A DNA stretch of 64,000 nucleotides from Candidatus Saccharibacteria bacterium CPR2 (GCA_021404905.1 QWHN01000001.1:130162-194161), one strand, 5' to 3'. Shown: positions 928-64,000, counted from the first letter of the stretch. Program-made: numbers and translations. The notes: generated from the letters alone by a model not told the origin.

Positions 928-3900
928 CTACCATTTCCCTGCAAGACTGCCTGCCATTTAATGCCATAAAACGTCACCGGAAATGTCGGGATATTCGTGT
1001 TTATGGTACTAACTGAGTTTGAATCGCTATACGAAGAAGATGTTGCCCACGAGCTACCATTCCAATATTTCCAGGTTGTACCGCCGTCATCTGAGAGACG
1101 ATAAGTTATTGTACCGCCATTGGTAGTTTCGCTATCCCCGAACGTATCCCAACTGGCAACACCTTGCGTGCGCACAGCAGTCCCCAGAGTCACACCTTGG
1201 GCAGAAGTACTATATGGGGTTGTTTGGAAAGATGACCGAACATTGTCGCTAATCCTTATTTCATCCAGCAATCCTTGGAAATATCCGCGCGCTTTGCCTT
1301 GTTCTCGTCCTCCCCAGCTTGCGCCAACATATAAAGCCTTTGTGCTATCAGGCATTGTTAAGGAAGCGCTTTGCGAACCTACTTCACTACCGTCAATATA
1401 TATTTTCATGGTCGATCCATTATAAGTCGCGCCGATATGATGCCAATTGGTGTCAAAACTGGCGGTAGAGGATTGTACGAATCCATTATTGCCCCAAGAC
1501 CAAATTGATGGATCTTCAGTATTACCACTGTTACCATTACCAACGTAGAGCTTGCCTTTATATACGCTCAAGGCTTTGACCTCTTCGACATTCCCATCCC
1601 ACCCATTATTTAGCGTGTCGCCACCGATTTGTGTCCAGTCGTCAGTACCATTAAACTCCCATAGCTCCCCGTCGCCGTTTGGCGTATAACCCAATCCAGC
1701 GTAGAGTTTGCCATTATAAACGGTCATTGTTGGAATATATTCATAGGTGCCTGAACTCCAACTGCTGTTAACAGAGCTGGCGCCACCGCCAATTAGTTCC
1801 CACGTGCTACCATCATAAGTCCAAACTTCGGCATCACCGGCAGCATCACCTAAACCAACAACTAGCTTATCTCCAAAGTTTGTCATTGTCCGAATCGTTT
1901 CGTAATTGGTATTCCAGCTAGAAGAAACTGCATCGCCACCAACTTTTGTCCAGGCGGTTCCGCTACCGCTCCACTCCCATACTTCCGATTCGTTGGTTGT
2001 AACTCCTAGCCCAGCGTAGAGTTTTCCGTTATATACTGCCATAGACTGAACTCTATCAAATCCGGATGCGCCCCAGTTATCAGCGTTCAGTCCACCAATT
2101 TGAGTCCAGGCGGTTCCGCTACCGCTCCACTCCCATACTTCAGCGTCTCCAGCTCCTGTGCCAAGTCCAGCGTATAACTTTCCATCCATTACTGACATTG
2201 AAAGTACCATTTCATGAGTTGATGTGCCCCAGTTCCCACTTGAAGTGCCACCAATTTGAGTCCAGGTAGAGCCATCCCATTCCCAAACCTCACCATCACC
2301 AGCCGGGGTATAGCCAAGCCCCACGTAAAGCTTACCCCCTAAACTTGCCATGGAACTGACAGATTCGTAAGTAAATGCCGACCAGCTGGAATTAACACCT
2401 TGGCCACCAACAAGCTCCCAGTTGGAGCCATCAAAACGCCAAACCATGGCGTTTCCGGCCACGGTATAGCCCGTACCCGCGTAAAGATAGTCTCCAACCC
2501 ATTGCATTACTTCTAAGCTTTGCAGGTTATAACAACACCAGCTTTTATTCACGCCATTTCCACCCAAACGCGTCCAAGCCGATCCATTCCAGCTCCACAT
2601 TTGGCCAGTTCCTGCCGAATCGTAAGTACCGGCATAAACGGTCGTGCCATCATTGACCATTGTAAAGACGACGTCCCCTTCATTGGTGCTCCAACTGGAA
2701 TTAGATCCATCACCGCCCACTTTAGCCCAGCTTGATCCATTCCAACTCCAAACCTCACCATCACCATTACCGCTACCTAAACCCGCGTATATGTTTGTAC
2801 CGTCAGAAGCAATAGACTTAACATATTCATATGTACTAGCCGCCCACCCACTATTTAAACCATCACCCCCTATTTGCGACCAAGAAGGTGAGCTGGCGCA
2901 ATTAGTGCAACGATATATATCGGCGTCGTAGTCAGTACTTGTATTATTGTCACCCACACCTGCGTATAAGTACGTTCCATCGTGATATAAGCTTCTTACC
3001 ATTTCTAAGTTAGCGCCAAAACCACTGCCACTATCGGCCACTTTTGTCCAGGTAGATCCATTCCAGCGCCAGACTTCGGCTTCGCCAGCCGTGATGCCCA
3101 AACCTACGTATAGATTTGTGCCATCATTGGCCATCGAGTAAACATAATCGTAATTTGTCATCCACGCCGTGGTGTCACCACCAATCTTGGTCCAGGAACT
3201 ACCATTCCATCGCCATACCTCAGCGTCATTGGCACTAGCTCCTAAGCCCGCGTAAAGATTGCCTCCAAAATAATCCAAAGAGTAAACGCCCTCGTGCGTA
3301 CCAATACCCCACTGTGCGGGCGTTGCGGTGTCACCGCCAATTTTACTCCAGCTGCCGCTTGTAAATTTCCAGACTTCGGCGTCACCAGTTCCAGTACCCA
3401 AGCCCGCATAGATGTTAGTGCCGTCAGTCTCTAGGCTGAGTACATACTCATGCTCGCCAGACCAACTACTGTTTACCCCATCACCACCAACCTTACTCCA
3501 GCTACCACTACTGAATTTCCAGACTTCAGCGTCTTTTGTCCCAACACCTAGGCCCGCGTAAACGTCAGAACCCATCACTACAGATGAAGCAACTGCCGTC
3601 ATGCCATCCCAGTTCCAGCTATTATTTACGTCATCACCAGCCGCTTTGGTCCACCCACTAGCTGAACTATTTGCTAGTTCATAGGTTACTTTACCGGTTT
3701 CGTTATCAAAATAAAGCTGATAATCGCCCTTGTCGACAATGGTTTGTCGTTGAGTGTGTGAGCCGGCAGAAAAAGACGAATCAAATTTTGCCCAGCCTTC
3801 AATGGTGTTGTTTTGAGAAAGAGATAATGAAGCCGAATCCGGCACTGATATCTTTGATGTTGTCCCGTTTAGACTAAGCCCGTTATTAAGGTTGCCCGCT

Positions 3901-59690: not shown

Positions 59691-60030
59691 TAAACTGAAA
59701 ACTGAAAATTAGCAATCAGCAACTCAACTAGCAATTGGGAATTGGAAAATAGGAACTAGTTAGAAGTTATAAAGTTCCTAAAGCTATCAAGCCCATAAAG
59801 ACTTACCATTTCTCATTTGCCACTTCTCAATTATCAATTAACATTCATTGGTTCAATAAAACATTTATCATTATTATATTAAAGTATCTCATTAGTTAAA
59901 TGACTAAATAAATGGCAACTGGTAAATGATAAATAGGAACTAGGAATTGGCAATTAGGAAATAGAAAATAGTATATTTTTAAAAACTAATTACTAGTTTC
60001 TAATTGCTGTTTTCTAATTTCTATACTCTA
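59691..60030. repeat. Non-coding gap filled with blocks of the 7-8-nt word repeat in both orientations (imperfect long hairpins)
   Basis: Forward blocks lie at 59691-59768 and 59921-59975, for example AGGAACTAG GAATTGG CAATTAG GAAATAG AAAATAG. Reverse blocks lie at 59808-59840 and 59981-60026. Stops occur in all six frames. Confidence 0.75.
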
Positions 60031-63140: not shown

Positions 63141-63180
63141 ACCAGGAGTTAGGAATTAGCAATTAGAAAACAGGAAATAA
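63141..63180. repeat. Word-repeat block (forward) flanking the four-helix-bundle gene on the left
   Basis: ACCAGGAGTTAGGAATTAGCAATTAGAAAACAGGAAATAA. Confidence 0.65.
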
Positions 63181-63184
63181 TAAA

Positions 63185-63571
63185 ATTTTAAATAATAAAA
63201 TAACATCTTTTAAAGATCTCGAGACATGGAAGCAGGCGCATAATCTTGTTAAATTAATATATGAGATCACAGATAATTTTAATAGGGCTGATATGTTTGG
63301 AATTACATCTCAAATGCAAAGATCTTCTCTCTCAGTATCTTCAAATATAGCCGAGGGGTTTGGCCGCCAATCCAAAAAAGACACTCTACACTTTTATATA
63401 ATGGCAAGAGGGTCATTAACAGAGCTACAAAATCAGCTGATTGTTTGTAGAGACACAAATAAAATTTCTACCGAACAATATGTCGAACTGGAGAAACAAT
63501 CTGTTCTTACTCATAAACTATTACATGGATTAATAAGATCAACAGACAGGAACAATACTAGTGATAACTAA
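63185..63571 (+). CDS. Four-helix-bundle protein (23S rRNA intervening-sequence protein family); no ATG at the family-typical N-terminus
   Basis: The track ORF (63293..63571) starts mid-domain. The frame is open from 63167 and encodes ..ITSFKDLETWKQAHNLVKLIYEITDNFNRADMFGITSQMQRSSLSVSSNIAEGFGR.., the full family pattern. The only plausible start is ATT 63185 (AGGA SD 8 nt upstream) or ATA 63200. Confidence 0.6.
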   Translation: MLNNKITSFKDLETWKQAHNLVKLIYEITDNFNRADMFGITSQMQRSSLSVSSNIAEGFGRQSKKDTLHFYIMARGSLTELQNQLIVCRDTNKISTEQYVELEKQSVLTHKLLHGLIRSTDRNNTSDN

Positions 63572-63604
63572 TTTCTTTTTCCTAGTTCCTGTTTCCTAGT
63601 AGGA
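63572..63604. repeat. Word-repeat block (reverse) flanking the four-helix-bundle gene on the right
   Basis: The reverse complement of TTTCTTTTTCCTAGTTCCTGTTTCCTAGTAGGA reads ..CTAGGAAACAGGAACTAGGAAAAAGAAA. It forms an imperfect inverted repeat with 63141-63180, with about two-thirds of positions matching by eye. Confidence 0.6.
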
Positions 63605-63607
63605 ATA

Positions 63608-64000
63608 ATGTATTCATCTCTTCGTCTTCAAAACTTTAGGTCATATAAAGACTACTCTTTAGAGTTGGGGCCTGGTGTAAATATAATTGTTGGGCCAAAT
63701 GCCAGTGGAAAAACCAATCTGCTAGAGGCGCTTTACGTTATTTCAACCGGAAGATCCTTTCGTGTAAAAGATGAGGATCTAATAAATTTCAATTCTGATT
63801 GGTCTAGGCTTGACAGTCGTTACGGAAGCACAGAGAGGGTCATTAAAATTGCAAGAAACAACGGTCGCCTTAACAAAACACTTACGATAGATGATTTACC
63901 AAACAATAAGATAAAACCAACCAATCTTATACCAATAACTCTGTTTGAGCCTCAAGATCTAAGGTTGTTTGGCGATCCCCCCGAAGCTCGTCGGAATTAC
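63608..64000 (+). CDS. recF: DNA replication and repair protein RecF (partial; continues past the window)
   Basis: My translation is MYSSLRLQNFRSYKDYSLELGPGVNIIVGPNASGKTNLLEALYVISTGRSFR..., a RecF N-terminus with Walker A. It is in frame to position 64000. Confidence 0.9.
   Translation, partial: MYSSLRLQNFRSYKDYSLELGPGVNIIVGPNASGKTNLLEALYVISTGRSFRVKDEDLINFNSDWSRLDSRYGSTERVIKIARNNGRLNKTLTIDDLPNNKIKPTNLIPITLFEPQDLRLFGDPPEARRNY

Follow-up and report, generated by a model that had tools for sequence, protein, structure and literature searches.

The spacer between dnaN and recF in a Saccharimonadales genome of the candidate phyla radiation (CPR) contains a gene of the four-helix-bundle protein family known from intervening sequences (IVSs) of 23S rRNA (S23p; PF05635/TIGR02436), bracketed by two inverted arrays of tandem, degenerate heptamers. 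All coordinates are 1-based positions of the window, that is, the whole 64-kb stretch of DNA that was analyzed. The reading that we favor, with moderate confidence, is that positions 63144−63599 constitute a compact cassette of a type first recognized in the open reading frame (ORF)-bearing 23S rRNA IVSs, inserted here in the dnaN-recF spacer and, by analogy, expected to be cut by RNase III. The new element is the occurrence of a heptamer-armed cassette of the rRNA-IVS kind in a protein operon spacer; the protein family and the heptamer-armed IVS of Coxiella were known already.

The PF05635 family is abundant in CPR bacteria, cyanobacteria, and Bacteroidetes, and to our knowledge this large family has had no assigned function since the 1990s. 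The tandem heptamers of cyanobacteria and Beggiatoaceae have been unexplained for about as long. The locus described here, together with a survey of 80 related loci, ties the two together, as the four-helix-bundle gene is almost always wrapped in cassette-specific arrays, usually inverted and 4−5 units long, and the cassette appears to be exchanged between genomes at conserved operon spacers. The rRNA IVSs would thus represent just one of the sites at which a far more widely distributed cassette has inserted.

The Cassette and Its Arms

The forward arm (63144−63178, plus strand) begins 7 nt past the dnaN stop, consists of five degenerate heptamers (AGGAGTT AGGAATT AGCAATT AGAAAAC AGGAAAT, read in register AGGAATT), and runs into the 5′ part of the open frame of the gene. 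The reverse arm (63565−63599, minus strand) likewise has five heptamers, with the forward word reverse-complemented, and overlaps the TAA stop of the gene. The consensus of the arm word is T[A/G]GNAAN. The right-hand edge of the cassette is GTAGGAATA (63600−63608, plus strand), a forward-type word carrying the AGGA that is the Shine-Dalgarno (SD) sequence of recF.

The best inverted repeat between the two arms covers 30 nt and is 73% complementary; the imperfect inverted repeat that a first-pass annotation of this DNA had proposed is therefore retained, with slightly refined coordinates. The RNA duplex of the arms has an energy of −28.2 kcal/mol, compared with −14.6 ± 3.3 kcal/mol in dinucleotide shuffles (z = −4.1), none of the 500 shuffles being as good, and it was matched by 15 of 1500 genomic segment pairs of the same geometry. 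Furthermore, the arms are paired both in the minimum free energy structure and in the centroid fold of 63130−63615.

The Four-Helix-Bundle Gene

The open frame of the gene lies at 63167−63574 (plus strand, TAA stop included), bounded upstream by an in-frame TAG (63164−63166) and downstream by the TAA (63572−63574), with helices 1−4, the protein core, encoded from 63209 to about 63559. The product scores 117.7 bits against PF05635 (cutoff 33.8) and 109 bits against TIGR02436 (cutoff 24), which bears out the family assignment made from the sequence at first reading. The closest solved structures are XCC0516 (2GSC, E = 6.5e-16) and 2RLD, with five chains in each deposit. The AlphaFold2 model has a pLDDT (predicted local distance difference test) of 90, with helices at frame residues 15−35, 40−66, 70−96, and 102−131. 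The family motif, given as GxxRxxxSxxxNxxE in PMC3936711, is found in the window protein as SQMQRSSLSVSSNIAEG, with Q instead of G at the first position, and Q49, R52, S56, N60, and E63 are invariant in alignment A1. The gene is thus an ordinary member of PF05635/TIGR02436. None of the PADLOC defense-system models matched it at E ≤ 0.01.

The frame is intact across 134 codons, with no stops and no frameshifts, and ten population contigs (L001−L010) are identical throughout the gene. A short ENA contig (L011) contains the true ortholog, since it shares the end of dnaN, the array, and a gene that is 81% identical at the protein level. Against this ortholog, the ratio of nonsynonymous to synonymous substitution rates (dN/dS) is 0.11, both over the whole gene and over the segment encoding helix 1, with dS of about 1.1; protein-level selection has therefore acted on helix 1 through most of the divergence from L011.

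Flanking Arrays in the Family

The flanks of other family members were surveyed in 80 loci of relatives with 42−54% protein identity, mostly from CPR metagenome-assembled genomes and some from genomes labeled Gammaproteobacteria, Bdellovibrionales, and Kiritimatiellales. Words were compared over 78 loci, duplex energies and unit counts were determined over 55, and the orientation of neighbors was determined over 73. Nearly all of the 80 loci, by eye and by measurement, have tandem heptamers just upstream of the gene and a reverse-complement array just past its stop. The period-7 score of the flanks is far above background, where 0.24% of windows over all loci score 0.8 or higher and the 99th percentile per locus has a median of 0.57. 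The upstream and downstream words are reverse complements of each other at 6 or more of 7 positions in 48 of 78 loci and at 5 or more in 73, compared with 4 loci that match at 6 or more positions in the direct-orientation control. Most of the surveyed family members therefore carry inverted heptamer arrays, as the first-pass annotation had predicted, and the bracketed gene-plus-arrays layout is the norm of the family.

Compared with shuffles, the median z of the arm duplexes of these loci is −7, and 53 of 55 lie below −2; arm length peaks at 4−5 units (44 of the 55 upstream and 43 of the 55 downstream arms), the window cassette having 5 + 5. The words are lineage-specific and include GAATTAT, GTATTTT, GTAGTAA, GAGTCAT, GGAATAT, and TAGGAAT, among others. 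The cassettes lie close against their neighbors; both neighboring genes are codirectional with the cassette gene in 55 of 73 loci, and in none are both opposed to it. Period-7 blocks abut a four-helix-bundle gene in 138 of 206 cases, the other 68 being orphans, and the surveyed genomes have many solo arrays and ORF-less forward/reverse pairs. Conserved 16S/23S rRNA motifs were searched for in the 80 related loci and found in none, so that no rRNA-borne CPR copy with such arms came to light. Heptamer arrays were also found on four of five cyanobacterial plasmid copies, two of them inverted (Nostoc punctiforme and Geminocystis).

One locus with two four-helix-bundle genes (L031) adjoins an expanded ORF-less pair at 3083−3272, formed by a perfect 14-unit CATAACG array, about 65 nt, and then a CGTTACG array of the reverse-complement type.

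Insertion and Turnover

The dnaN-recF spacer has 471 nt in the window; it has 19 nt in L093 and 48 nt in L094, two relatives with DnaN 58−59% identical, where it holds neither cassette nor arrays. In the closer relative L092 (DnaN 81% identical), the same spacer contains a different four-helix-bundle gene, with 42% protein identity to that of the window, and its arms use AAAGGTT/TAAAGTT words. Over the final 120 nt of dnaN, L011 and L092 share 89% identity, but L011 has the cassette of the window (79% nucleotide identity) and L092 the different one. Because different words and genes occur at one site in near-identical hosts, the words belong to the cassette and not to the host or the site. The dnaN-cassette-recF arrangement is also present in a third Saccharimonadales genome (L066).

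Furthermore, the same operon spacers are occupied in divergent lineages, often with different words, namely a porD-porA-like spacer (ferredoxin-type/oxidoreductase alpha subunit), atpG-atpD, atpD-atpC, and dnaN-recF; the loci with repeatedly occupied spacers are L017, L036, L048, and L054; L016 and L018; L027 and L063; and L066 and L092. These comparisons indicate that the cassette is an insertion, exchanged as a unit of gene and words at the dnaN-recF site. No target-site duplication or mobility enzyme was found for the cassette, and a metagenome scan with DnaN for close relatives and empty sites yielded nothing. In L092 a GC-rich hairpin (GTGTGCC CTC GGCACAC, 7105−7130) immediately follows the dnaN stop, ahead of the cassette, and the window has none.

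ORF-less Arrays

Directly 3′ of rpmH, at 59910−60033, lies an ORF-less twin of the cassette, with a forward array of about nine units (59910−59972) and a reverse array of about eight units (59978−60033) of the same word family; its spacer contains no ORF of at least 40 aa. The twin folds into a hairpin at 59933−60024 with a 12-nt loop and an energy of −28.7 kcal/mol (z = −4.7, 0 of 200 shuffles as good), so that the empty version noticed earlier near rpmH is confirmed. A second, weaker forward/reverse heptamer pair is located in the rpmH-yidC spacer (forward 59692−59770, reverse-type 59807−59848), with a duplex of −19.1 kcal/mol that was equaled by 19 of 500 shuffles over 59692−59848. Two minus-strand genes enclose a solo array of about seven heptamers of the same word family (12549−12597), in forward orientation on the minus strand. 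The ORF-less hairpins close to rpmH correspond to the arms of the cassette with no gene between them. An Rfam scan of the whole window returned one tRNA, with nothing in the spacers and no rRNA.

The rpmH-yidC spacer of L092 keeps T[AG]GNAAN hairpin arms, in a hairpin at the same position as the twin of the window, and has one ORF-less pair where the window has two. In L093 and L094, rnpA lies between rpmH and yidC (1523−1849 and 1541−1885 regions, respectively), and in the window (59670−60036) and in L092 heptamer hairpins are found in its place. A tblastn search for rnpA detected no rnpA-like sequence in the rpmH-yidC spacer or in the whole 64 kb (E > 6).

The Logan contigs of this organism, from at least 13 samples, start at about 60002, within the reverse array of the ORF-less hairpin, and the ENA contig L011 stops (position 556) at the first unit of its downstream array. 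The heptamer arrays appear to break short-read assemblies, with the practical consequence that they interrupt metagenome assemblies at the replication-origin region of this organism.

Comparison with Known Systems

The closest published counterpart is the helix-45 23S IVS of Coxiella burnetii, whose 5′ arm contains an SD, three tandem GACAGAT and one GACAGAA, and then the ATG of S23p. These heptamers lie in the 5′ arm of the RNase III stem, RNase III cuts at the first repeat, and their copy number varies among strains; the authors think that S23p is not expressed (Warrier et al. 2016, PMC4990558). Like the ORF-bearing 23S IVSs of Coxiella and Leptospira, the window cassette is a PF05635 ORF between terminal inverted repeats, with a size of ~430−460 nt and with ORF-less versions; like the Coxiella IVS, it has an SD-like sequence and tandem heptamers in the 5′ arm up to the start, and its protein production is doubtful. 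Judged from the sequences, the likeness to the Coxiella IVS is exact at the level of anatomy, in agreement with the first-pass proposal of a stem-plus-ORF IVS architecture outside an rRNA. Unlike 23S IVSs, however, the cassette sits in a protein-coding operon spacer and not within an rRNA helix, and it fails the defining IVS feature, which is location inside rRNA. Its arms, with five degenerate units and 73% complementarity, differ from the near-perfect 28-bp stem of Coxiella, and RNase III cleavage, demonstrated for the Coxiella IVS, is proposed by analogy for the window cassette.

The gene departs from the norm of TIGR02436/PF05635 in lacking a canonical start codon, and flanking heptamer arrays are not part of the descriptions of these families in the library searched. 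In the searched literature, heptamer repeats are tied to the PF05635 family only for Coxiella, although subscription literature or database comments may hold more, and papers on PF05635-type genes in cas operons or on CPR rRNA insertions do not mention arrays.

The protein also resembles Avd of the diversity-generating retroelements (DGRs; PDB 4DWL), a homologous four-helix bundle (PF22296, 21 bits; PHROG 3206, E = 3e-7) that acts as a basic, pentameric cofactor and binds RNA through a defined surface. Membership in DGR Avd was considered and rejected, as NF033474 gave 21.4 bits against a cutoff of 80, and the neighbors are dnaN and recF, with no adjacent reverse transcriptase or template/variable repeats.

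Tandem degenerate heptamers are known from the cyanobacterial short tandemly repeated repetitive (STRR) sequences, from the TAACTGA repeats of Beggiatoaceae (MacGregor 2015, PMC4679880), and from the heptamer repeats of Nostoc (bioRxiv 10.1101/2022.06.06.494920), all of them described without an identified partner. Like the arrays described here, those repeats have 2−6 units, are intergenic and usually forward, and end at or near a start codon; the reports, in which the PF05635 family is not mentioned, describe direct repeats ahead of a variety of genes, with no link to four-helix-bundle genes, whereas here inverted pairs surround such a gene.

The ORF-less twin recalls miniature inverted-repeat transposable elements (MITEs) and repetitive extragenic palindromic (REP) elements, since it is a short, noncoding, intergenic inverted-repeat hairpin related to an ORF-bearing element, with a copy number that differs between sister species. 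Unlike MITEs, it has no flanking target-site duplication and no near-identical copies, the other arrays of the window sharing its word but not its sequence, and its arms are tandem heptamers instead of unique terminal inverted repeats. We know of no transposase for it. The MITE-like label of the first-pass annotation is therefore apt only in a loose sense, for the inverted repeats and the noncoding character and not for target-site duplication or near-identical copies.

Proposed Mechanism and Alternative Explanations

A promoter and terminator scan of 59500−64000 gave 17 promoter-like sequences, compared with 15.3 expected, and 2 terminator-like sequences, compared with 2.6, none of them array-specific. 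Because no such signal rises above chance, the cassette presumably has no promoter of its own, and it would be transcribed together with dnaA-dnaN-recF. In the transcript the arms would pair to give an imperfect stem of about 30 bp, presumably in several registers because they are tandem repeats, and this stem would be cut by RNase III, by analogy with the IVSs of Coxiella, Leptospira, and Salmonella, an analogy from which we infer excision of the cassette. Cleavage would set the cassette RNA free and split the message of dnaN from that of recF, and it would restrict how much of the cassette gene is translated. The window copy, having lost its ATG, would be either weakly translated from ATT 63185 or ATA 63200 or freshly silenced with its arms persisting.

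Several observations weigh against this explanation. Mirrored units of the two arms are no better matched than in arms with permuted units (z = −2.5 for Watson−Crick pairs and −4.0 with G·U), and duplexes of the sense strand show no greater stability than those of the antisense strand (−29.3 vs −30.7 kcal/mol), with no G·U advantage; selection on an RNA stem is therefore undetectable beyond the shared word. The hairpin of the ORF-less twin is more stable on the strand antisense to its neighbors (−28.7 vs −19.5 kcal/mol). One of the five cyanobacterial copies lacks a clear upstream array, and another, on a plasmid of Pseudanabaena galeata (L097, NZ_CP112875.1, 46268−46627), has direct instead of inverted arrays, with 16 perfect AAAGCTA and about 10 AAAGCCA heptamers, around a gene located between cas6 and cas4. 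Finally, no rnc gene or RNase III signature motif is visible in the 64-kb window, which is uninformative for the whole genome. With pairing in several registers, a stem would survive the gain or loss of units without base-by-base covariation. The data fit equally well an RNA stem and two independent arrays of one recognized word, and the stem may be a by-product of the latter. The earlier suggestion of a mobile or RNA-processed cassette is thus upheld as regards insertion and exchange as a unit, and is weakened as regards RNA processing by the lack of covariation and of a G·U advantage and by the copy with direct arrays.

The explanation that follows from independent arrays is that they are putative recognition sites, on RNA or DNA, of the encoded Avd-like homopentamer, with about five heptamers per pentamer; this would give autoregulation, marking of the cassette ends, or both, and orphan arrays would be targets in trans. 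We regard it as doubtful but worth weighing. The number of units is sharply peaked at 4−5 per arm, the window having five in each, which suits the five chains of 2GSC and 2RLD, and Avd is a positively charged pentamer for which an Avd-binding RNA element exists. Arms that behave as independent arrays of one word, with neither register covariation nor G·U strand asymmetry, also agree with it, as do the occurrence of direct arrays and the joint exchange of words and gene. Distances between proteins and distances between words show a weak correlation (Mantel r = 0.175, 7 of 2000 permutations), and orphan words are slightly nearer to the local cassette word than expected (2.40 vs 2.75 ± 0.09, 0 of 2000); however, these correlations are weak and confounded by common descent, and in 33 of 60 orphan arrays at least 3 of the 7 positions are unlike those of the local cassette word. 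The Nostoc work does postulate a partner for its heptamer repeats (bioRxiv 10.1101/2022.06.06.494920), but among family members binding is known from DGR Avd only, the window copy may make no protein, Coxiella S23p is reported as probably not expressed (PMC4990558), and a reader of single-stranded RNA would meet the word in just one of two inverted arms. If the pentamer does read the heptamers, gene plus arrays would form a self-recognizing module. A wider version, which we consider unlikely, is that the tandem heptamer repeats of bacteria have Avd-like PF05635 pentamers as their partner, one unit per subunit, that orphan CPR, cyanobacterial STRR, and Beggiatoaceae TAACTGA arrays are their trans targets, and that rRNA IVSs are copies that landed in rRNA. 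Two explanations do without the gene altogether. That the arrays are intergenic punctuation of the host, providing stops in three frames through the TAG that recurs with each 7-nt unit, AGGA resembling an SD, and hairpins acting as terminators or stabilizers, with the gene simply lying between two of them, is quite improbable: the words do contain TAG and AGGA, the SD of recF is itself a forward word, solo and ORF-less arrays occur in the window and in other genomes, and heptamers near start codons have proposed regulatory roles in Beggiatoaceae (PMC4679880) and Nostoc (bioRxiv 10.1101/2022.06.06.494920); but the words follow the gene, near-identical hosts having cassettes with different words at one and the same site, words found elsewhere (GTATTTT, GGAATAT, and others) contain neither stops nor an SD, two thirds of the period-7 blocks (138/206) abut a four-helix-bundle gene, promoter and terminator signals do not exceed chance, and the empty-site relatives L093 and L094 lack such arrays in the dnaN-recF spacer. 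An accidental likeness of AT-rich, low-complexity spacers is highly improbable; the region is indeed AT-rich (about 36% GC) and the z-score of the whole-cassette fold is just −1.48, but no shuffle out of 500 equaled the arm duplex and the same architecture, with lineage-specific words, recurs in most of 78 independent loci, and on these grounds chance was rejected.

The Missing Start Codon

From 63167 to the first in-frame ATG (63293−63295, plus strand), the frame of the gene contains no ATG, GTG, TTG, or CTG. This ATG encodes residue 43, inside helix 2; a product starting there would begin at profile position 25−29 and is therefore not full length. The family profiles begin at frame residues 12−16, and in the AlphaFold model the shorter product is without all of helix 1 (residues 15−35) and the start of helix 2. 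The only near-cognate codons before helix 1 are an ATT (63185−63187, plus strand), a candidate noncanonical start preceded by AGGA (63172−63175) with a 9-nt spacer, and an ATA (63200−63202, plus strand), a second candidate that is aligned with position 1 of NF008911, the usual family Met. The description given in the first-pass annotation, in which the frame is open from 63167 and helix 1 precedes the first ATG, was therefore accurate.

The ortholog in L011 has an ATG start inside its array (TAGAAAATGGGAAAT, compared with TAGAAAACAGGAAAT in the window), and the window has ACA at this place (63170−63172, plus strand), also within the array, a two-base change. The start was therefore lost in the window lineage at this site. 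An in-frame ATG is present in 77 of the 80 relatives, often within the array, and another relative, L013, has ATA at the family start position instead of ATG. On this comparison a lost ATG appears to be a simpler reading than the noncanonical initiation suggested earlier, which is possible. ATT and ATA are very poor initiators in the bacteria studied, and we lean slightly toward the view that the present copy is silent or very weakly expressed.

The stronger form of this view, to which we give nearly even weight, is that the gene is a recently silenced relic, in which the ATG has been lost, functional protein is not made, and only the nucleic-acid arms matter; it concerns the state of the gene and not the nature of the cassette. 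It is favored by the ACA in place of the ortholog's ATG, by the retention of ATG in nearly all relatives, by the general inefficiency of ATT and ATA, and by the persistence of ORF-less versions nearby; furthermore, the authors of the Coxiella study reached a like conclusion for S23p (PMC4990558). Nevertheless, the 134-codon frame has neither stops nor frameshifts, dN/dS against the ortholog is 0.11 overall and for helix 1, a well-spaced AGGA lies ahead of ATT 63185, L013 likewise has an ATA at the family start position, and the identity of the L001−L010 contigs over the gene means that no decay is visible.

Other Features of the Window

The last 6 kb of the window constitute the replication-origin region, in the order jag and yidC (minus strand), a 367-nt spacer, rpmH (minus strand), dnaA, a small conserved ORF, dnaN (62034−63137, plus strand), the 471-nt spacer, and recF (plus strand, ATG at 63609). 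An ORF of 95 aa (61750−62037), without a Pfam match, overlaps both the 3′ end of dnaA and the 5′ end of dnaN. ORFs of 94−101 aa are called at the same place of the origin operon in L092, L093, and L094, and the 95-aa ORF is probably a conserved gene of this operon.

Farther upstream, a 168-nt tandem repeat (50701−51277; 3.4 copies, 79% match) lies inside a 574-aa ORF (49589−51313), where it would encode a repeated 56-residue module. The first 4000 nt of the window (1−4000) have a GC content of 47−49%, compared with 36−44% elsewhere in the window, and a strongly negative GC skew; this GC-rich segment coincides with a 1166-aa minus-strand ORF (885−4385).

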